A stretch of DNA of 32,000 bases from Allobaculum fili (GTDB lineage: Bacteria > Bacillota_I > Bacilli_A > Erysipelotrichales > Erysipelotrichaceae), in assembly GCF_020969955.1 (NCBI RefSeq), contig NZ_JAHDSX010000025.1:2883-34882 (forward strand), given 5' to 3'. Under the pieces are notes generated by a model. It saw nothing but the letters and a program-made list of their open reading frames with translations. It was not told where the DNA came from and ran no database searches. Positions 3,806 to 19,279 of this stretch are shown one piece after another (the first letter of the stretch is position 1; each line of letters begins with the position of its first letter). The position numbers and the translations under genes were made by a program.

Positions 3806-4471
3806 ATGTTATCTGCCCTTCGAACATTCGATCTGCGCATGATTTCGATTTATCTGATTGCCGTTTTCCTTTCCATGACGCTTCATGAAATGGCGCATGG
3901 ACTGGTCTCCTACTGGCTGGGGGATTCGCTGGCAAAATCGCGCGGACGAATTTCTTTAAACCCGTTCCACCATATCGACTGGATGGGTCTGCTCTGCCTG
4001 CTGCTCTTTGGTTTTGGATGGGCCAAACCGGTACCGGTCGATCCATCCCGCTACAAGGATCCGAAAACCGGCATGATCTGGACCGCTTTTGCGGGTCCGA
4101 TGACCAACTTCCTGCTTTCCTTTGTCTGCGTGTTCCTTTTTGAAGTGCTGGTTTATTTCACCGGCGGCTTCGTGAACACTGCCATCGGATCGTATCTGAT
4201 CTCGCTTCTGTCCGCGACCGCGGTGATGTCCATGGGATTTGGCGTCTTCAACCTGATTCCGATCCCGCCGCTGGACGGATCCCGCATTTTCTGGGCATTT
4301 TTGCCGGACCGAGAATACTTCAAAGTCAATAATCCGCCTGCCTGGATGTCCCTGCTGTTTCTGGTTGTGATTTTCTCCGGCATTCTCGATGGACCGCTGG
4401 CCATGATGCGTTCCACCATGATCGGCTGGATGGAAAGCGGAGCGCTCTGGCTGCTTTCTCCGTTTATTTAA
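3806..4471 (+). CDS. site-2 protease family (M50-like) membrane metalloprotease
   Basis: HEMAHG (HExxH) lies in the first TM helix, NLIPIPPLDGSRI supplies the LDG motif, and there are several hydrophobic segments. AAAGGAG at 3794-3800 precedes the ATG at 3806. The ORF-track start at 3710 has no RBS. Confidence 0.8.
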   Translation: MLSALRTFDLRMISIYLIAVFLSMTLHEMAHGLVSYWLGDSLAKSRGRISLNPFHHIDWMGLLCLLLFGFGWAKPVPVDPSRYKDPKTGMIWTAFAGPMTNFLLSFVCVFLFEVLVYFTGGFVNTAIGSYLISLLSATAVMSMGFGVFNLIPIPPLDGSRIFWAFLPDREYFKVNNPPAWMSLLFLVVIFSGILDGPLAMMRSTMIGWMESGALWLLSPFI

Positions 4472-4590
4472 ACGGCCTGTTTACGCGCGGGGGACTGGAT
4501 CATCCAGTCCAAGGCGCCGCACAAACGAAAGAGATCGAACGGGATTGTCTGGAAATTCCGTTCTGAACCGCTCTGTTGTGAACCCTTTTT

Positions 4591-4631
4591 GAGTCTGTAC
4601 GTACTGCAATGGTACCTGCAGACTCTTTTTC
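4591..4631 (+). terminator. probable intrinsic terminator ~120 nt downstream of the S2P gene
   Basis: gagtctg (4591-4597) pairs with cagactc (4619-4625), with partial inner gtac/gtac pairing, followed by TTTTT. The stem is imperfect. Confidence 0.45.
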
Positions 4632-4848
4632 TTTTTCCAAAAAGGCGGGATCCATTATTCGTTTGCACGCTTCGAAAAGCCATCGCCTATAGAAAAACGA
4701 AAGGTACAATCCGGTATTGCAAGAATGAGCAGCGCTTGCATAAATTGATTGATTTTCAGAAGAATTGGACGATGCAGGGAAAGGCTACGGTACAAAAAAG
4801 ACAATGACAGTCAAAAGAAAACGTGAGTGTCAAACCAGACGCTCAATT

Positions 4849-4892
4849 TTCCGTACCTGTTGCGCTTTAATTCCGTACCTGTTGCGCTTTAA
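4849..4892. repeat. perfect 22-bp tandem direct duplication (ttccgtacctgttgcgctttaa x2)
   Basis: Read directly: 4849-4870 is identical to 4871-4892. It lies 34 nt upstream of the ATG at 4926. Confidence 0.95.
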
Positions 4893-4925
4893 AAGAAAAA
4901 AGTAAGAAAAGAAAGAAGGAAAATT

Positions 4926-5189
4926 ATGAAATACTGTGAGCACTGTCATGCTCCCATTTCCGATACGGCGCTGTTCTGCACCAGCTGCGGAACGCCTGTT
5001 TCCAAATCCTCTCCGGCCAGTCAGCCGGCAAAGTCGAATCCGGTCCAAAACGCATCGGCGCAGAGAGTTCAGCCTGGCAAAACTGTTCAGCCGGCAAAAA
5101 ATGCCGGATATCCTCAGAATGCCCGGGCGGTATCCAGTACGCCTTATGCGCAGAACGCGCAGCCCGTCCAGAATGCGCAGAACGGATAG
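4926..5189 (+). CDS. zinc-ribbon protein with a Q/N/A/P-rich low-complexity tail (probably the N-terminal fragment of an interrupted gene)
   Basis: MKYCEHCHAPISDTALFCTSCGTP has the CxxC...CxxC zinc-ribbon pattern. GAAGGA at 4914-4919 serves as RBS. The ORF ends at the TAG at 5187-5189 and is in frame with the next ORF. Confidence 0.6.
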   Translation: MKYCEHCHAPISDTALFCTSCGTPVSKSSPASQPAKSNPVQNASAQRVQPGKTVQPAKNAGYPQNARAVSSTPYAQNAQPVQNAQNG

Positions 5190-5252
5190 TTTTCGAATGC
5201 GGTAAAGACAAACGCCCAGACGCAGTCCGTTTCTTCCGCTGCCTCTTCCGCC

Positions 5253-5918
5253 ATGCAGACCGTGCAGGCGGTCGTCGGTTCGGTTCAGTCGTTTGTGGAT
5301 AATGCCTCGGCGGCTTACCGGCCGGTCGCTCAGCGCGCAGTGGAAAATGCGGAAGCGCCAAACCGGGACAAGACGTGTCATGGCGTAATTCTTTCGGACG
5401 GGGAAATCGTAATCCGGGACTACGTATGTGCCGATATCCGCTCCCCGCGCTGCATGGGATATCTTACCGTAACGAATAAGCGCGTCCTCTTTAACGGAGA
5501 AGGCAGCGGAAGCCGGATCGCTCAGCAGGCCTGGATTGACGGCGTCACCGGCGTTACCGCCTATTACGGGCGCGACATTCAGATTTCGATGGTCGTTGGC
5601 GGAGCACTTCTTCTTCTCTGTTCCCCCTTTGCAGCGATGGTCAATCCGCTCGTACTGTTTCTGTTTATGGGGCTGGGGATCTTACTGATCATTGTCGGCC
5701 TGATGCAAAAATGCTTCAAGCTGAGCATTCATTCCAGCAACTACACCGGCAACAGTATTTCGTTTGGGAGCGGGCCGACCAACATGCTCGGCAATGCGGC
5801 GCTGCTTTCGCTGACCGGCGGCCCGACTGTCGACACCAACAAGATGATGGATGAGCTCGGCGCTCTGATTCAGGATCTTCAGACGCAGGGCGATCTGGCC
5901 ATCAAAAAATGGAAATAG
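5253..5918 (+). CDS. PH-like (bPH/GRAM-type) domain protein with two TM helices (probably the C-terminal part of the interrupted zinc-ribbon gene)
   Basis: GYLTVTNKRVLFNG is typical of bacterial PH-like domains. Two hydrophobic helices follow (ISMVVGGALLLLCSPFAAMV and PLVLFLFMGLGILLIIVGLM). There is no RBS before the ATG at 5253, and the frame is the same as 4926-5189. Confidence 0.55.
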   Translation: MQTVQAVVGSVQSFVDNASAAYRPVAQRAVENAEAPNRDKTCHGVILSDGEIVIRDYVCADIRSPRCMGYLTVTNKRVLFNGEGSGSRIAQQAWIDGVTGVTAYYGRDIQISMVVGGALLLLCSPFAAMVNPLVLFLFMGLGILLIIVGLMQKCFKLSIHSSNYTGNSISFGSGPTNMLGNAALLSLTGGPTVDTNKMMDELGALIQDLQTQGDLAIKKWK

Positions 5919-5941
5919 CCGATCGAAATTCTGCGATCGCA

Positions 5942-5981
5942 ACAAAGACAGGCATCGGCTTTCGCTGCCTGTCTTTGTTTT
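5942..5981 (+). terminator. strong intrinsic terminator between the PH/TM gene and the 99-aa ORF
   Basis: A 12-bp perfect stem, acaaagacaggc (5942-5953) paired with gcctgtctttgt (5967-5978), runs into a T tract (ttgtttt). Confidence 0.8.
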
Positions 5982-5996
5982 GGAAAGGAAATCGAA

Positions 5997-6296
5997 ATGA
6001 TTGATATTAATGTAAATCGTCTCGCAAAACGCATTCAGGAAGAGTGTCCGTACCTCGATGCGCAGGCGGCAATGTATTACGCCAGAGACTTTCAGCGCAC
6101 CTTTGAAGACGGCTCGAAACCCGCACTGGAGCGATGGATGAATCATGAGCCGTTTGAGACGGATGAAAAATATACCGTTCCTGTGATTCAAAAAATTCAC
6201 AGAGCCGGAGGAATTGTGGAAGCATTCCGTCTTTACGATCTGTGGAAAAAAGATCCCGTCCTGGGCGAACGGCTCATCTGGCAGGGACCGCGCTAA
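5997..6296 (+). CDS. hypothetical 99-aa protein, first gene of the three-gene module
   Basis: This is the only sizeable ORF in the interval. AAAGGA at 5984-5989 serves as RBS. The composition looks like a real protein, and I recognise no family. Confidence 0.55.
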   Translation: MIDINVNRLAKRIQEECPYLDAQAAMYYARDFQRTFEDGSKPALERWMNHEPFETDEKYTVPVIQKIHRAGGIVEAFRLYDLWKKDPVLGERLIWQGPR

Positions 6297-6311
6297 AAGG
6301 AGCAGAAAGTC

Positions 6312-8498
6312 ATGAACTTACGACAGATGCGCTTTGCGCTTATGAGCGATGAAAAGCTCTATCAGTCTTTTGCTTCTTCGAACTGGAACCGGATGAGCGT
6401 CGAAAACCGGAAGGCAGCGCTGCAGGAGCTGGGCAATCGCGTCGCAGACGAATACGGGATTGAACGCCGGCCGATGTGGTTTGAACCCATGAGCGGAGGA
6501 CGCTTCGGATCTTTTGATGAGAATGAAAATGTCGTATGCCTCAACCGCTACCTTGTGGAAGAAGGCCGGCAGTATATGGCGGAAAACGGGCAGCTGTATT
6601 ACTGCGATCGTACGGATGCGCCGGCCGAACTGGTGAATACGGTTTATCACGAATACTATCACGCCTATCAGCGGGATGCGATCGACGGAAAAGTGACGCA
6701 TCCGGATCCCATGGAAGTCAAAGTCTGGGAAAGCAATTTTAAACGGGATGCGGGCAATCAGCTCGTGAACTACTACAGCAATCAAGACAAAGTGGATCCG
6801 CGCTATAACGTCCAGTCCGGGGAGCGAACAGCCGACCGCAAAGGAGAAGAAGGCGTTCGAAAAGTTTTTGAATCCAACGAAAGAACTCTCGGCAAAGACC
6901 AGATGTATGAAGAGTATAAAAAATCGCATGCCTGTGATTCATATTCCAGACACCTTCAGGATGCGATCAGCCAGTTACAGGATCCGAACATCGAAGAAAA
7001 TCTCGATAAAGAGATGCTCATGAAATACTGCGATGATCATGGAATCGACTATAAAGCAGAGGACAGCTATAAGGATGTCTGCAATCGGATTCGGCAGGCA
7101 GAGCATCCAGAACTTGGTCCAGCTAAGCCCGCTTCCGAAAAATCTCTGCTGACCCCGGAACAGGAGCGGCTTAAGCAGTACATGGATGATCATGGATACA
7201 GTCCGGAAAACCAGACGGAGTATAAGCGGGATCCGGAATGGCAGCGGCTGCATCAGGCAGTTTATGGAGAACGCGAAGGCATAAATAACTTGCCGCCGGA
7301 TCCCTCTTTCCACAAAGAAGCGGAAAAGGCCGAGCAGGAAGACCAGACGATCAACAGAGAACTGAACACGGAGGTTTTACCAAAGAAAGCGGAAGAAGCT
7401 GCCGAAAGCGAAGACCAGGATCAGCAGGAAGGCGAAAGCAAAACAGCGGAAGAGACCGAGGACGAATCTGAGGCTGAAAGCGAAGGTCAGAGCGAGCAGG
7501 AAGGCGAAAGCGAAGCGGTCGAAGAGACCGAGGACAAATCCGCAGCCGAAAGCGAAGATCAGACTGAACAGGAAGATCAGGTCGAGTCCGATGAACTGAA
7601 CATGGACGACTCCCCCGAAGAAAGTGAAGACGAAACTGAGCAGGAAGATCAGAGTGAAAGGTCTGAAGAGACCGAGGACGAATCTGAGGCTGAAAGCGAA
7701 GATCAGAGCGAACAGGAAGAGGAAAGCGAAGCGGTCGAAGAGACCGAGGACAAATCCGCAGCCGAAAGCGAAGATCAGACTGAACAGGAAGATCAGGTCG
7801 AATCCGATGAACTGAACATGGACGACTCTCCCGAAGAAAGTGAAGACCAGAGCGAACAGGAAGATCAGGTCGAGTCCGATGAACTGAACATGGACGATTC
7901 TCCCGAGGAAAGTGAAGACGAGACTGAACAGGAGGATCAGGTCGAATCCGACGAATTGAACATGGACGACTCTCCCGAAGAAAGTGAAGACCAGAGCGAA
8001 CAGGAAGATCAGGTCGAGCCCGATGAACTGAACATGGACGATTCTCCCGAGGAAAGTGAAGACGAGACGGAACAGGAGGATCAGGTCGAATCCGATGAAC
8101 TGAACATGGACGACTCTCCCGAAGAAAGTGAAGACCAGAGCGAACAGGAAGATCAGGTCGAGTCCGATGAACTGAACATGGACGATTCTCCCGAGGAAAG
8201 TGAAGACGAGACGGAACAGGAGGATCAGGTCGAATCCGACGAATTGAACATGGACGACTCTTACGACGAAAACGAAGACCAGAGAGAACAGGAAGATCGG
8301 AACCATTCGGATGATGTAAACATGGATGAATCGGCAGATCAGGAAGAAGAAACATCTGAAAACGAAGAACAGGCCCAGTCCGAAGATCAGAGTCTGTCCG
8401 ATGAGCCCAGCATGGAGGACGGTTCTTTGCCATCAGACAGCGGGGAGAGTTCCTCTAAAGAGGAGGAAGAAGACGAACAGAAGGGCATATCCTACTGA
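6312..8498 (+). CDS. 728-aa protein: N-terminal zincin-like domain (HEYYHAYQ) plus C-terminal polyacidic tandem-repeat region
   Basis: AGGAG at 6297-6301 serves as RBS. The HExxHxxQ motif is at codons 113-120 (6648-6671). The short module Y[CM]DDHG...YK.D occurs twice. From about codon 364 the sequence is almost entirely D/E/S/Q with 24-aa repeats (ESEDQSEQEDQVESDELNMDDSPE). No signal peptide or TM segment is visible. Confidence 0.85.
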   Translation: MNLRQMRFALMSDEKLYQSFASSNWNRMSVENRKAALQELGNRVADEYGIERRPMWFEPMSGGRFGSFDENENVVCLNRYLVEEGRQYMAENGQLYYCDRTDAPAELVNTVYHEYYHAYQRDAIDGKVTHPDPMEVKVWESNFKRDAGNQLVNYYSNQDKVDPRYNVQSGERTADRKGEEGVRKVFESNERTLGKDQMYEEYKKSHACDSYSRHLQDAISQLQDPNIEENLDKEMLMKYCDDHGIDYKAEDSYKDVCNRIRQAEHPELGPAKPASEKSLLTPEQERLKQYMDDHGYSPENQTEYKRDPEWQRLHQAVYGEREGINNLPPDPSFHKEAEKAEQEDQTINRELNTEVLPKKAEEAAESEDQDQQEGESKTAEETEDESEAESEGQSEQEGESEAVEETEDKSAAESEDQTEQEDQVESDELNMDDSPEESEDETEQEDQSERSEETEDESEAESEDQSEQEEESEAVEETEDKSAAESEDQTEQEDQVESDELNMDDSPEESEDQSEQEDQVESDELNMDDSPEESEDETEQEDQVESDELNMDDSPEESEDQSEQEDQVEPDELNMDDSPEESEDETEQEDQVESDELNMDDSPEESEDQSEQEDQVESDELNMDDSPEESEDETEQEDQVESDELNMDDSYDENEDQREQEDRNHSDDVNMDESADQEEETSENEEQAQSEDQSLSDEPSMEDGSLPSDSGESSSKEEEEDEQKGISY
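7449..8340 (+). repeat. in-frame tandem repeat array, 72-bp unit (with 216-bp and 144-bp higher-order structure), encoding the acidic tail
   Basis: The landmark gtcga[ga]tcc recurs at 7581, 7797, 7869, 7941, 8013, 8085, 8157 and 8229, giving exact 72- or 216-bp spacing. The block 7449-7664 is repeated at 7665 onward. Degenerate copies continue to about 8340. Confidence 0.95.
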
Positions 8499-8554
8499 TT
8501 CCTCCCAGCTAGTCCAATGCTTCAGCCTCAATGTATGGAAGAAAGGAAAAGAAA

Positions 8555-9865
8555 ATGGAATACAACGAACAGATTCTCAGCGGTGAATATCTTCATGATG
8601 ATCTGACTTACGTAGAACAGACGGCAAAATTCGGCCTTCCCGGAACGCTTCGAACCGGGAACAGTGTACTGCTCTGTCCGGGTGAGCAGATGCTGTCACG
8701 CCATCTGCTTCTGCTTGGCGGAATTGGAAGCGGCAAATCCAACTGCTTCAATCACCTGATCCGCAATGTCCGTGCCGGACTGACCGGACAGGATGTGCTG
8801 ATCATTTTTGATACCAAAGGCGACTATTACGATGAGTTTTACTGTCCGGGCGATGTCGTCATCAGCAACGATGCCCGGGCTACCGGCGGCGCTGGTTTTG
8901 ACTGCTGGAACGTCTTTAACGAAGTCATGATCGATGACCGCGTCGAAGAAAACGTCTACGAAATTGCCGGTACGCTTTTTTATGACAAGATTCACAACAG
9001 CTCGCAGCCGTTTTTCCCAAATGCGGCGAAAGACCTGTTTACGGCGCTGATGCTGCACATGAACCGCTCCGAGAAAATGGCGGCGCATCACAATAACAAG
9101 GCGCTCCGTTCCATGCTGGATACGTTCTCTCCGGAAGCCATGAAGAAAATTCTTCTTTCCTATCCCGATCTGAAGTCGATGAGTACGTATATTGATGATC
9201 CGAAGTCCGGACAGACAATGGGCGTCGTCTCGGAACTGCAGCAGGCAGTGCGGGAAATTCTGATCGGCAATTTTAAGCAGAAGGGAACGCTCTCCATGCG
9301 GGAACTGGTTCGCCAGAAAGGCGGCCGTGTCATTTTCATCGAATATGACACGGGCATCGGCAATCTGCTTACACCGATTTATAAGCTGCTGGTCGATCTG
9401 GCAATCAAGGAAGCGCTCTGCCGCAAGAGCAACGAAGGAAACGTTTATTTCATGCTCGATGAATTCCGGCTGCTTCCGCATCTCGAACACATTGACGACG
9501 GCGTCAATTTTGGACGAAGCCTGGGCGCCAAGTTCGCGATCGGAATTCAGAACGTGGATCAGATTTCGGCAGCGTATGGCGAAAACCTGGCGCGAAGCAT
9601 TCTTTCCGGTTTCGCGACAACGTTCGCTTTTCGGGTCAACGATTCCAATTCCCGCGGCTACATCAAGGATCTTTATGGAATGAATCTGCGTTCGGCAAGC
9701 TTCCTGTCCAATATCACGTCAAGAGGACTGGTCGAGCAGATTCGGGAAACGACGGTCGTTGAAGACGTGGATATCACCCGGCTACAGATTGGCGAAGCCA
9801 TTATCAGTACGCTGGGCATGCCGCCTTTCCGCTTCCGGTTTGATGAGTTTTTCTCGTCGCGCTGA
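8555..9865 (+). CDS. VirD4/TraG/TraD-type (type IV coupling protein-like) P-loop ATPase lacking TM segments
   Basis: Walker A is LLLLGGIGSGKS (8717-8740) and Walker B is VYFMLDEF (about 9443-9466). The TraG-D_C-like tail reads DEFRLLPHLEHIDDGVNFGRSLGAKFAIGIQNVDQISAAYGENLARSILSGFATTFAFRVNDSNSRGYI. AAGGA at 8543-8547 favours the ATG at 8555; an alternative ATG at 8531 has no RBS. Confidence 0.8.
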   Translation: MEYNEQILSGEYLHDDLTYVEQTAKFGLPGTLRTGNSVLLCPGEQMLSRHLLLLGGIGSGKSNCFNHLIRNVRAGLTGQDVLIIFDTKGDYYDEFYCPGDVVISNDARATGGAGFDCWNVFNEVMIDDRVEENVYEIAGTLFYDKIHNSSQPFFPNAAKDLFTALMLHMNRSEKMAAHHNNKALRSMLDTFSPEAMKKILLSYPDLKSMSTYIDDPKSGQTMGVVSELQQAVREILIGNFKQKGTLSMRELVRQKGGRVIFIEYDTGIGNLLTPIYKLLVDLAIKEALCRKSNEGNVYFMLDEFRLLPHLEHIDDGVNFGRSLGAKFAIGIQNVDQISAAYGENLARSILSGFATTFAFRVNDSNSRGYIKDLYGMNLRSASFLSNITSRGLVEQIRETTVVEDVDITRLQIGEAIISTLGMPPFRFRFDEFFSSR

Positions 9866-9939
9866 CTTTGGAATGCGATCCGCACCCCGTAAGGTACTCA
9901 CAGAAACGGTTCGCAGATCGCAAAAACCAGAGAATAAAA

Positions 9940-9980
9940 CCCGTCCGATCGAAATTTTGGCTCGATCGGGCGGGTTTTGT
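9940..9980 (+). terminator. intrinsic terminator closing the three-gene module
   Basis: A 13-bp perfect stem, cccgtccgatcga (9940-9952) paired with tcgatcgggcggg (9962-9974), is followed by TTTT. Confidence 0.85.
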
Positions 9981-10235
9981 AGGAATGCGTCTGCTTGTGG
10001 AAAGGAAACGACGGTTTTCGGAAAGGATCGGATCGGGAAGAAAAGTGCGCTTTTTGACGGCAGGGAGAACGGTTGTACGGGTGACTCGGGCGTTTTCGAT
10101 CCAAATCGGGTCAAATGTGAATGAAACGTGTACACCAAAGCAAGAAGTTTTCATTTCATTTTCAATTATTTTCATGAAAAAAACGTACAAAGCACACAAA
10201 AACGCAGAAATAAGGGAAGGGCACGGGAAGATATG

Positions 10236-10263
10236 TTGAGATTATCGGTTTTGCGTTTAATAT
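10236..10263 (+). promoter_or_regulatory. candidate sigma-A promoter of the liv operon
   Basis: TTGAGA (10236-10241), a 16-nt spacer and TAATAT (10258-10263) lie about 30 nt upstream of the livJ-like ATG. This rests on sequence pattern only. Confidence 0.4.
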
Positions 10264-10293
10264 TTAAGCTATCTTTTTAGAAAGAGGAACAAA

Positions 10294-11493
10294 ATGACAA
10301 AACACTTCTGGAAAGCAGCCGGAGCCACATTACTCTGCACATCCATGCTCGCTGGCTGCTCAAGCACTCCTGCAACTGGCAGCAGTACCGCAGATTCTGC
10401 TGCAGGCTCTTCCGCCAAAGCTGGCGATACCGTTAAAATCGGTCTCAACTTCGAGCTGACCGGTCAGGTCGCTGACTACGGCACAAAAGAAATTAACGGT
10501 GCGAAAATCGCTGTACAGCAGTTCAACGCCCGTGAAGACAAGCCCTTCACCGTAGAAACGGTTGAATTTGATGACAAGGGCGAACCGGCTGAATCGGTTG
10601 CTGCAATTACGAAACTGATCGAACAGGACGGTGTTGTCGGCGTTGTCGGACCTGCGACTTCCGCAAGCTCCATCGCTACGTATGAATTTGCGACATCGAA
10701 GCAGGTTCCTGTAATTTCTCCTTCCGCAACGCAGGTAAACGCCATGCTCAAGGCAGATGGTACACCATATGAATATGCGTGGCGTGTCTGCTTTGAAGAC
10801 AGCTATCAGGGCAAAGGCATGGCGGAATATGCCTACAACAATCTTGACGCGAAAAAAGCCGTTGTCCTGAACGAAGTATCCGACTACGGTTCCGGCCTGG
10901 CCGAAGCCTTCACCGAAGAATTCGAAAGCCTCGGCGGCGAAGTTCTCGACCGTTCCGAATACCAGTCCGGCGACAAGGATTTTGCAAGCTTCATTACCAA
11001 AATCAAAGACCTCGACTTCGATGTTATTTACGTTGGCGGCTACTATAACGAAGCAGCCCAGATCGTAAAGGCAGCCAAGGCAGCCGGCATTGAAAAACCG
11101 ATCATCGGTGCAGACGGATTTGACTCCGCTGACTTCATCCAGCAGATCGGCAACGACTACGCCAACAATATTTATTACACAACCGCCTACACAGCGATTG
11201 ATCCAAGCGAAGAACTGTCCAAGTTCATCGAAGACTACAAAGCAGCATACGGCGAAGAACCAAGCATGTTTGCGGCGCTTGCCTATGATGCAACCAACCT
11301 GCTCCTCTCCAGTCTCGAAACGTCCGGTGCGACGGGTGCAGAACTGAACGAAGCCATCAAGAAAGCAGACTTCTCCGGTATCACTGGATCCTTCACATTT
11401 GATGAGACAAACCACACTCCAGCAAAATCCGTTCTCGTTGTTGAACTCGTTGACGGTGTTCAGTCCAACGTCAAGGAAGTAAGCGTAGAATAA
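10294..11493 (+). CDS. livJ: branched-chain amino acid ABC transporter substrate-binding lipoprotein (LivJ/K family)
   Basis: The signal peptide carries the lipobox LAGC. A type-I periplasmic-binding fold pattern is present (VKIGLNFELTGQVADYG...GPATSASS...). The operon context with livHMGF supports the call. Confidence 0.88.
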   Translation: MTKHFWKAAGATLLCTSMLAGCSSTPATGSSTADSAAGSSAKAGDTVKIGLNFELTGQVADYGTKEINGAKIAVQQFNAREDKPFTVETVEFDDKGEPAESVAAITKLIEQDGVVGVVGPATSASSIATYEFATSKQVPVISPSATQVNAMLKADGTPYEYAWRVCFEDSYQGKGMAEYAYNNLDAKKAVVLNEVSDYGSGLAEAFTEEFESLGGEVLDRSEYQSGDKDFASFITKIKDLDFDVIYVGGYYNEAAQIVKAAKAAGIEKPIIGADGFDSADFIQQIGNDYANNIYYTTAYTAIDPSEELSKFIEDYKAAYGEEPSMFAALAYDATNLLLSSLETSGATGAELNEAIKKADFSGITGSFTFDETNHTPAKSVLVVELVDGVQSNVKEVSVE

Positions 11494-17301: not shown

Positions 17302-17790
17302 TTACGATCTGCGCCGCTTTTTGCGGATGCGTCTGGAGAGATCCTGATCCGCACTGCTGGAGCCGGCGCACTGCGCCTGTTCAAGCATCTTAAAGAAGGA
17401 CTCGATATCGCTGGCGATTTCCTTCTTCTTGGACGGCCTCTCCAGCGGCAGCAGAACGATCGATCCCGTACTGGTGTCGAGGAAAAAGTCATCGTCCGTA
17501 TCGCTTAAAGCGAGCGGAAAATACGTATCGGGAATGAGATTGCCCATCGAGTACAAGTCGAGAATATGATCGGCTGACATATTTCCGGTAAATAAAGGAA
17601 TGAAATGATCGACGACATACGTATGGCCGTCTACCTCCAGAGGGGTATGGAACATACTCATACCGTTGCACGTGCGGTAGAAGTCCTTGAGGGCGCCGGG
17701 AAGACACAGATTATAGCGGTCTTCAAATTCCAGGAGCATTTCTTCCGAGAAAGGTAAAGGGTCCTGGCCGGGGGTGAGGAATGAATACAT
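17302..17790 (-). CDS. SMI1/KNR4 (SUKH-1) family protein, immunity-protein-like
   Basis: FEDRYNLCLPGALKDFYRTCNGM is the typical SMI1_KNR4 N-terminal signature. I chose the start at M26 of the ORF-track ORF (cat at 17788-17790), with GGAGG (complement of 17801-17805) as RBS. Confidence 0.7.
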   Translation of the reverse strand: MYSFLTPGQDPLPFSEEMLLEFEDRYNLCLPGALKDFYRTCNGMSMFHTPLEVDGHTYVVDHFIPLFTGNMSADHILDLYSMGNLIPDTYFPLALSDTDDDFFLDTSTGSIVLLPLERPSKKKEIASDIESFFKMLEQAQCAGSSSADQDLSRRIRKKRRRS

Positions 17791-18008
17791 GAGGTATACA
17801 CCTCCTTTTCTCAAGTATAGGCGCCATAGGGACCTCTCATTTCGTCGCCGGAGCGAAATTATCAAACCTTAATGGGAAAAAAGAATATAAACAAAGGCCG
17901 CCTAAAGATCCAAAACCATTATGGAGAAAATGAATAGAATGTAACAATTTACATTTCCAGCTCAAAACCGCGCGCAAACGGTCAGAGCGGATCGCGACGG
18001 CAGACCAA

Positions 18009-18781: not shown

Positions 18782-19279
18782 GCGTTCTCCTTTCAAAAGA
18801 AATTGGACCGGTCTGCATCGACTCAAATCAGAAGGAAGAGCAGAGCGGCAGGGTTATTAAGCGGGAAACAGGCGGCAAAGAATGTCCGCCTGACAAAATG
18901 CAGAAAAGCAGCAATAAGAAATAGCAATAAGAAATAGAAATAAAAATAGAAATAAGAAATCAAGGATATACTGTCCGGTTTTCGTCTTTTCCGGATTGTT
19001 TTCAGAAAAGGGAACCGGCGCAACAACAGAATATTCAGAAATTCGAAAAAAATACAGGCAGATTCACGGATCTGTCGAAGCCAGAGACGAAAGTGCTTTG
19101 CGGTTTTCGATACAATAGTCTGAAAGCAAACCATACAGATTGAATGACGATCGATCCGCCACGGTTTATAAATCCTATCTATGCAGGTACTCTATAAATC
19201 GTCAGCCCATGCGGACGGCTAAACCGTCGAAAAAGAAAAAAACAGAAAAGGGCATCTATAGAAACAGGGAGGAACCTCT

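Follow-up and report, generated by a model that had tools for sequence, protein, structure and literature searches.

A strain-variable 72-bp coding array in the acidic tail of a predicted zincin-like protein encoded beside a TrwB-family ATPase in Allobaculum fili

We analysed a 32,000-nucleotide stretch of the Allobaculum fili genome (contig NZ_JAHDSX010000025.1, positions 2,883 to 34,882; hereafter the window), in which an array of 72-bp tandem repeats lies within a single open reading frame (ORF) at 6312..8498 on the + strand. The array is coding, and the tail that it encodes is under purifying selection at the peptide level. This long, polyacidic tail follows a predicted zincin-like metallopeptidase domain, and the gene appears to belong to a conserved, undescribed cassette of four genes that encode a Zn-ribbon protein with two transmembrane (TM) segments, a protein of ~100 amino acids (aa), the zincin-like protein with its acidic tail, and a soluble ATPase resembling type IV coupling proteins (T4CPs). 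We tentatively favour, at somewhat less than an even chance, the reading that the ATPase engages the zincin, perhaps via the ~100-aa protein, through the tail as a multivalent polyanionic handle.

A repeat-expanded acidic tail alone is an ordinary feature; its value here is as a pointer to an uncharacterised, widely conserved cassette. An exhaustive profile search with the zincin-like protein gave 745 cluster representatives at E<=1e-3 and 252 at E<=1e-10, indicating a cassette that is widespread in gut Firmicutes and Synergistota with a strictly conserved gene order. Over these large evolutionary distances, charge, a short motif, and an end motif are all retained in the predicted disordered tail, while an ATPase of the conjugation type seems to be used outside any secretion system, coupled with a predicted protease. 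If the tail is indeed a handle or pseudo-substrate for the ATPase, the cassette would provide a tractable model for how TrwB-class motors recognise polypeptide rather than DNA, and for how repeat number could tune such recognition.

Structure, coding constraint, and strain variation of the array

The coding sequence (CDS) and the repeat features within it are as follows.

6312..8498, + strand: whole CDS, 728 aa plus stop, comprising a zincin-like domain, a helical linker, and the repeat-expanded polyacidic tail
7404..8339, + strand: 13 in-frame 72-bp units (24 aa each) in the order K-A-N-K-A-N-N-N-N-N-N-N-N'
7836-8267, + strand: near-perfect subarray of alternating A/B (QS/ET) units
8340..8498, + strand: degenerate acidic C-terminal stretch, ending ...EEEEDEQKGISY and then the stop; it bears the C-terminal end motif of the family

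Tandem Repeats Finder (TRF) placed the array at 7401/7548-8298, inside the ORF and in phase with its reading frame, with periods of 72 (10.4 copies), 144 (5.2 copies, 85% matches, score 1015), and 216 bp. The near-perfect 72-bp tandem array described in a first-pass annotation, which had been made from the letters alone, is therefore real and in-frame coding. Its start had been set at 7449; the in-phase array begins at 7404 and has three unit types. These types, obtained by cutting the sequence every 72 bp from 7404, were labelled K (...GESKTAEETEDESEA), A (...ESEAVEETEDKSAA), and N (...DQVESDELNMDDSPE). Every N unit contains the motif ELNMDDSP, and the 13th unit, N', is a degenerate N copy followed by 52 more acidic residues. 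The 24-aa unit ESEDQSEQEDQVESDELNMDDSPE has D/E at 12/24 positions and no K, R, or H, exactly as first reported. All eight positions listed for the landmark gtcga[ga]tcc were located, with one departure from the exact pattern at 8013, where the sequence reads GTCGAGCCC and Ser is replaced by Pro. A 216-bp block at 7449-7664 had also been described as duplicated at 7665; the second copy (7665-7880) is present but matches the first at 196/216 positions, a 91% copy rather than a near-perfect one.

Comparison of the unit types disclosed strong constraint on the encoded peptide. QS-type and ET-type units alternate from 7836 to 8267, and the units at 7836 and 8124 are identical over 72/72 nucleotides. 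The QS and ET consensus units differ at 9 nucleotides, corresponding to 6.5 synonymous and 2.5 non-synonymous changes, with proportions of synonymous (pS) and non-synonymous (pN) differences of 0.57 and 0.04, respectively, and a pN/pS of 0.07. Outside the QS/ET codon pair, 6/6 differences are synonymous (P ~1.5e-5 under random placement over synonymous and non-synonymous sites). Because the two unit types differ almost only synonymously, the array is constrained at the peptide level, in agreement with the proposal made when the alternating types were first noticed. Two long antisense ORFs, 7351..8433 and 7377..8306, overlap the array and were dismissed as by-products of the stop-free GAA/GAG-rich repeat. 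A scan of 4400-10400 for promoters and terminators was uninformative.

The tail as a whole spans aa 340-728. It is acidic, as the first-pass annotation had stated, and of low complexity; at 389 aa it is longer than the ~370 aa given there. It contains 185 D/E (48%), 11 K/R, and 1 H, for a net charge of ~ -174.

We next compared the array with those of closely related strains. The array in the complete 2.73-Mb genome of Allobaculum sp. Allo2 (CP078088.1, locus L004) equals that of the window in length. Over 5.9 kb (window 4401-10300) this record is identical to the window save for ten single-base deletions in the record, located between window positions 4489 and 10177, which fragment several genes including that of the M50 peptidase and look like uncorrected long-read indel errors; the zincin gene is annotated there as a 207-aa product (P0007). 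As the record belongs to the same strain or assembly lineage, its array is no independent confirmation. Alleles from Allobaculum metagenome-assembled genomes (MAGs) and metagenomes, with 98-99% flank identity, encode 584, 560, and 512 aa compared with 728 in the window, being shorter by 6, 7, and 9 units of 24 aa, respectively, and no frameshift was seen within the arrays of the compared alleles. Alleles of close strains thus differ by whole in-frame units, as expected of a variable-number coding repeat and as the first-pass annotation had anticipated, together with its caution about short reads: the shorter alleles, assembled from short reads, could reflect either real copy-number variation or collapse of the array.

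One further metagenome allele (L019, 4001-6159) is 2159 bp long compared with 2187 bp in the window and has another order of K, A, and N units. An allele of near full length with a different unit order argues for real turnover of units. This allele carries a 2-nt insertion in a T-run at window 7374 that shifts the frame before the array; the protein called from it (P0004) enters a K/R-rich frame, and the acidic frame is open to the normal stop. Either a sequencing error or a lesion of very recent origin could account for the insertion.

It is very improbable that the length or structure of the array is an assembly artefact. An array of 0.9 kb built from 72-bp units is hard for short reads, and the MAG alleles are shorter (512-584 aa). 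Yet the same structure occurs in the complete genome, albeit one of the same strain lineage, the diagnostic substitutions stand in regular order, the array stays in frame and runs into a conserved C-terminus, and the L019 allele, which is independent, has nearly the same length. Public annotations of the zincin-tail gene are unreliable, as the gene is truncated in CP078088.1 and short-read assemblies may have collapsed the array.

With coding arrays of the variable-number tandem repeat (VNTR) type, the array shares a unit that is a multiple of three bases, alleles differing by whole units at this level of flank identity, and homogenised units. In contrast to such arrays, it lies in a protein of intracellular type, in which Pfam recognises neither a signal peptide nor a wall anchor, and its unit motif is conserved in distant homologues.

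Zincin-like domain, linker, and acidic tails across the family

The N-terminal HExxH zincin-like domain had been missed in the first-pass annotation, as had the ~100-aa partner gene, the Zn-ribbon membrane protein, and a short repeat-unit motif that distant homologues have in common. The features N-terminal to the tail are listed below.

6312..7058, + strand: zincin-like metallopeptidase domain, aa 1-249, assigned from conservation, AlphaFold2 (AF2), and Foldseek
6648-6662, + strand: HEYYH, aa 113-117
6822-6824, + strand: candidate third ligand E171, in the motif Y165-x-x-Q168-x-x-E171-x-x-A174
7059..7328, + strand: helical linker (AF2 helices), aa 250-339, with the duplicated motif DDHG(Y/I)..(E/Y)..Y K(R)D(PEWQ)

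Alignments of 29 and 82 diverse homologues revealed that H113, E114, H117, Q120, and Y165 are invariant; for Q168 and E171 this holds in the larger alignment, with conservation of at least 90% in the smaller one. Conserved positions common to both alignments were W25, Q38, G66, N78, T110, H113, E114, H117, Q120, Y165, Q168, E171, and A174. An AF2 model of the N-terminal domain computed with the 82-sequence multiple sequence alignment was confident, with a predicted local distance difference test (pLDDT) score of 83.5 and a predicted template modelling score of 0.79, and placed the HExxH motif on helix 103-124; a single-sequence model of the N-terminus (pLDDT 44) was unusable.

Foldseek matches of this model in the PDB were all zincins, although weak (E 0.03-1, probability up to 1.0). 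Jannalysin (4jix; E 0.03, probability 0.97-1.0) was the top match, and the others included PprI/IrrE (8sln), selecase, abylysin, SPRTN (6mdx), and BepA. Fold matches in the viral library BFVD were to SprT-like, IrrE-like, and M48 proteins (E 3e-3 to 0.3). At the sequence level, no Pfam, NCBIfam, PADLOC, or PHROG family model covers the protein, and a sequence and profile search of the PDB with the domain gave no informative match. The best curated peptidase match across the 29 diverse members, SprT-like, was found in 2/29 at E>=0.11 and is not significant, and a PDC-M37A match in PADLOC-DB v2 (E 0.008) was weak and non-informative. From motif and fold together, we concluded that the N-terminus is likely a zincin-like metallopeptidase domain of a family without a model, and the protein a predicted protease.

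Helices of the linker were modelled at aa 253-264, 282-293, 298-305, and 308-318 (pLDDT ~78-88). The second copy of its duplicated motif reads YMDDHGYSPENQTEYKRDPEWQRL, the duplicated region covering approximately window 7010-7260 (aa ~236-315), and the motif also occurs twice in the homologues P0009, P0011, and P0015. A weak Pfam match to Ish1 (E 0.006) falls in the linker.

To describe the tails across the family, we used 237 homologues in which the domain is followed by at least 30 residues. The first-pass annotation had named orthologues without an acidic tail as a finding that would weaken its reading; 96% of the 237 tails are net negative, with a median length of 132 aa, 23% D/E, and 3% K/R. 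Tail length ranges from ~20 to ~670 aa, and unit types differ among lineages. A 5-mer occurs three or more times in 42/209 tails compared with 0 in shuffled sequences. Repeats of other unit lengths are found in homologues, with 54-bp units in L013 and distinct units in P0015, P0053, P0089, and P0103; tail repeats appear to have arisen independently with different unit lengths.

The core of the N unit, LNMDDS, resembles a motif repeated in homologues of 25-35% identity (NIMDNSLDE, DLSMDQL, VSMDDI, FSMDDMT). In the family tails, the pattern [STND]-M-[DE]-[DEQNSA] has 77 occurrences compared with 29 +/- 5 in composition-matched shuffles (maximum 46 of 300). A C-terminal end motif, a tripeptide of a small, a hydrophobic, and a polar or acidic residue within the last 6 residues, is present in 162/208 tails compared with 43 +/- 6 in shuffles, with examples such as GIS in KGISY (window), SYSY, GGIE, GMEM, and DYSE. 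These comparisons show that acidity, a short repeated motif (hydrophobic-x-M-D-x-hydrophobic; ELNMDDS here), and a hydrophobic end motif are family-wide traits of the tail. The array thus repeats a conserved short motif in an acidic spacer and runs out into a conserved terminus. A role of the repeat core as a SUMO-interacting motif (SIM) was considered and rejected: the window protein contains no match to the ELM SIM pattern quoted in PMC5098910, and SIMs are not enriched in the family tails (34 core matches compared with 44 +/- 6 in shuffles).

These data bear on two other accounts of the tail. According to the first, the role of the tail depends on its composition alone: it would serve as an entropic bristle, as a spacer or solubility element, or as a buffer of cations (Zn2+/Ca2+/Mg2+), and the array would be length noise driven by slippage. 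Such arrays readily expand by replication slippage or unequal recombination, and the wide range of tail lengths, the lineage-specific unit types, and the free variation of alleles among strains agree with this account. We nevertheless consider it unlikely, although worth keeping in view, as the synonymous differences outside the QS/ET pair imply that the exact peptide is conserved, not just its composition, and both the repeated motif and the end motif are more frequent than in composition-matched shuffles.

The second account, which we judge doubtful, holds that the tail is an autoinhibitory pro-segment whose end motif or repeat motif fills the zincin cleft until the ATPase or a trigger pulls the tail out. 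The best structural matches of the domain are zymogen forms of minigluzincins (4jix, 4jiu, 4qhi), which are reportedly kept latent by C-terminal segments; the end motif is a conserved feature of the family, and the account is compatible with the ATPase synteny described below. On the other hand, a single cleft could be plugged without hundreds of acidic residues and ten copies of the motif, and the fold matches are those weak ones given above, with template modelling scores of 0.4-0.5 on small targets.

The four-gene cassette and its synteny

Besides the zincin-tail gene, the window contains the following parts of the cassette.

4926..5189, + strand: N-terminal piece of the Zn-ribbon membrane protein, 87 aa, with the Zn-ribbon and a Q/A/N-rich linker; premature stop at 5187-5189
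5253..5918, + strand: C-terminal piece of the same protein, 221 aa, with a weak GRAM/PH-like region and then a two-helix TM hairpin
5997..6296, + strand: conserved partner protein of ~100 aa, directly upstream of the zincin-tail gene
8555..9865, + strand: soluble homologue of TrwB/VirD4/TraD-type hexameric ATPases, 436 aa (Pfam, 1e9r)

Among the four cassette proteins, only the ATPase is recognised as a family by Pfam, NCBIfam, PADLOC, and PHROGs. Its Pfam matches are TrwB_AAD_bind (PF10412, 3.9e-44), T4SS-DNA_transf (PF02534, 1.5e-20), and TraG-D_C (PF12696, 2.1e-12), and its nearest solved relative by sequence is TrwB (1e9r, 2e-10). In PADLOC-DB v2 it displayed only generic P-loop similarity to the mad8 and HerA models (4e-11 and 1e-7). 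The orthologues begin at the equivalent of the 8555 ATG and have 436 aa, and neither the window ATPase nor any of five homologues has a TM segment in a hydropathy scan. Thus, the ATPase shares with T4CPs (TrwB/VirD4/TraD) the TrwB-type nucleotide-binding and all-alpha domains but not the N-terminal TM anchor, and a separate Zn-ribbon protein with two TM segments is encoded nearby. It is a TrwB-family ATPase, though not a bona fide T4CP.

The first-pass annotation had suggested a link between the tail and the adjacent translocase-type ATPase, and synteny strongly backs this suggestion. A soluble ATPase (434-507 aa, no TM segment) adjoins the zincin-tail gene in all sampled loci with enough sequence, namely in the Allobaculum loci, in 9/9 non-Allobaculum contexts with enough contig (L005, L006, L007, L009, L011, L013, L014, L015, and L017), and in 22/22 metagenome loci with room. 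In every sampled context the zincin-tail gene is directly preceded by an ORF of ~100 aa, and of the metagenome loci 24/25 have this small ORF. The Zn-ribbon protein with two TM segments is a frequent fourth member (L007, L009, L011, L017, and most metagenome loci). This essentially invariant gene order amounts to an obligate-looking genomic partnership of the zincin with an orphan ATPase of the coupling-protein type. No description of the cassette was found in the open-access literature.

The product of 5997..6296 is 30-31% identical to its equivalents in L005 and L006 (E 7e-13 and 2e-12, respectively) and has no match in Pfam, NCBIfam, PADLOC, PHROGs, or PDB. In MAG orthologues, the Zn-ribbon membrane protein is encoded by a single gene of 334 aa (Pfam Zn_Ribbon_1, 4.7e-8), and BLASTP aligns the two pieces found in the window with residues 1-87 and 114-334 of this protein. 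Position 5187 is T in the window and C in the MAG orthologue L001, relative to which the window is without 12 bp at 5243; the gene is also split in CP078088.1. A hydropathy scan placed the TM segments at aa 108 and 127 of the C-terminal piece, in which the GRAM match is weak (E 0.017). Just 5' of the start of the Zn-ribbon gene, at 4849-4892, lies a perfect 22-bp tandem duplication (TTCCGTACCTGTTGCGCTTTAA x2), one copy of which is missing from L001.

Two larger versions of the cassette were observed in other genomes. In Catenibacterium and many gut contigs (L007 824-13542, L009 7381-18611, L011 723-13337, and many of L022-L045), the layout is fixed and comprises nine genes: p300, p450, and two Hsp70-like genes, divergent from the small ORF, the zincin-tail gene, the ATPase gene, p420, and the Zn-ribbon-TM gene. 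The Hsp70-like proteins match Pfam HSP70, and in L007 the 514-aa Hsp70-like gene is present in two copies with 100% protein identity. The L009 cluster adjoins GmrSD and RhuM genes, which is suggestive of a defence-island setting. The other version, in a Synergistaceae MAG (L005 215-6317) and an Oscillospiraceae MAG (L006 1646-8680), carries a ThiF-type E1 gene, an E2-like gene (weak), several JAB genes, and an ATP-grasp gene; one JAB peptidase is membrane-anchored, and a faint SUMO-like (Rad60-SLD) match lies at L006 5740-6342.

The other extra proteins, including p420, p450, and p300, which are unannotated and about 420, 450, and 300 aa long, respectively, have no informative match in Pfam, PADLOC, or PDB. 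PADLOC-DB v2 likewise gave no informative match for the small ORF, the membrane protein, or p420/p450/p300, the LmuB match of the L007 membrane protein (E 0.004) being weak and non-informative, and the cassette thus corresponds to no described defence system in that database. The zincin family is absent from 72,556 plasmids and 50,697 phages searched by tblastn with the N-terminal domain, and from IMG/VR, and a profile scan of genome contigs gave only 2 loci. In the window, the cassette is flanked upstream by ispF, dtd, folD, ychF, and the M50 peptidase gene, and downstream by livJHMGF, then trkAH and rpoBC.

Possible roles of the acidic tail

In the reading that we tentatively favour, the array would be that part of a disordered polyanionic C-terminal tail which has expanded recently and varies among strains; through this tail the ATPase would recognise, hold, or thread the zincin protein, with the ~100-aa protein possibly serving as an adaptor between the two. 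Each 24-aa unit would add a copy of the binding motif in an acidic spacer; as every unit is one more motif copy, unit number would tune avidity or reach. Such an arrangement could be likened to the recognition of unstructured, charged C-terminal signals by coupling-protein complexes, for example, the binding by DotM, in the Legionella DotL/M/N coupling complex, of C-terminal signals that are acidic and Glu-rich (PMC5802825). Like the substrates of type IV coupling systems, the zincin has a predicted unstructured, charged C-terminal region with a conserved extreme C-terminus; unlike their short signal, its tail is repetitive and hundreds of residues long. Since the natural ligand of TrwB-type ATPases, single-stranded DNA (ssDNA), is a polyanion, the tail could equally occupy the DNA-binding channel of the ATPase as a pseudo-substrate. 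The first-pass annotation had offered a nucleic-acid mimic, a substrate or plug for the ATPase, and a cation binder as hypotheses, and the evidence favours the second of these.

Several observations weigh against engagement of the tail by the ATPase. Synteny links the genes functionally and is no proof of the tail as the contact point. There is no conspicuously basic partner, with isoelectric points of 5.4-8.7 for the small proteins and 5.5-7.9 for the ATPases; a basic protein binding the tail electrostatically was sought as a candidate, and none was evident from net charge. VirD4 signals of the classical type are basic rather than acidic. Among the Pfam-annotated neighbours of the sampled cassettes, ~6-9 kb on each side, and in the window there is no VirB4, relaxase, or channel gene of a type IV secretion system (T4SS), and the analogy with secretion signals may for this reason not hold. 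The M-D motif is concentrated in the subfamilies nearest to the window, with at least one copy in only 35/208 tails. Finally, because the membrane-protein gene has a premature stop, the cassette may be partly decayed in the window strain, or the split membrane protein may be made in two pieces. Export, protease activation, and defence against invading DNA are all possible outputs of the cassette.

The closest architecture among known systems is that of GCNA/ACRC, Wss1, and SPRTN, which we regard as a resemblance, not as membership or demonstrated homology. In both cases a zincin core, similar at the fold level, is joined to a large disordered region, which in the cassette protein evolves fast and consists of acidic repeats. 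GCNA, for which the words 'acidic and repetitive' have been used, combines a minigluzincin protease with an intrinsically disordered region, and ubiquitin-family-binding motifs belong to this group of proteins (PMC5098910); Wss1 cooperates with the hexameric ATPase Cdc48 (PMC4559962). Some cassette loci likewise carry E1/E2/JAB genes. In contrast, the cassette zincin gives no significant SprT-like sequence match, the SIM is absent from the window protein, the cassette tail is C-terminal, and the partner ATPase is of the FtsK/HerA/TrwB class, not AAA+.

An extension of this comparison, which we consider improbable, is a bacterial machine in which an orphan coupling-type ATPase operates with a SprT/minigluzincin-like protease held by its DNA-mimicking tail, as a prokaryotic counterpart of Wss1/SPRTN/GCNA-Cdc48. 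The canonical ligand of coupling-protein-type ATPases is a relaxase covalently attached to ssDNA. Incoming protein-linked DNA of conjugative elements or phages, or DNA-protein adducts, could then displace the tail from the ATPase and free or activate the protease; the Hsp70-like or ubiquitin-like modules would be add-ons, and repeat number would set the threshold of the switch.

The first-pass annotation had also proposed that the tail acts as a nucleic-acid mimic, a decoy for restriction enzymes or nucleoid proteins in the manner of ArdA or Ocr. The tail does share a very high negative charge density with these proteins, and its neighbour is homologous to DNA-translocating ATPases. The comparison ends there: the zincin protein has no similarity to ArdA, Ocr, or any anti-restriction family in PHROGs or Pfam, and the tail is a low-complexity repeat, whereas known DNA mimics are folded, with DNA-like charge spacing. 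Its invariant fusion to a protease domain would be left unexplained. The gene is, moreover, chromosomal here, between housekeeping flanks (ychF and the M50 peptidase gene; livJHMGF), and a role in anti-restriction or on mobile elements is made less likely by the absence of the family from the plasmid, phage, and IMG/VR collections. We therefore regard such a decoy function as highly improbable. The evidence remains more in line with the tail as a possible ATPase-binding element.

Two features elsewhere in the window are unrelated to the array. A gene for a SUKH-1 (SMI1/KNR4) immunity-type protein is located at 17302-17865 on the - strand, and an AT-rich 13-bp tandem repeat with 3.8 copies occupies 18913-18960.

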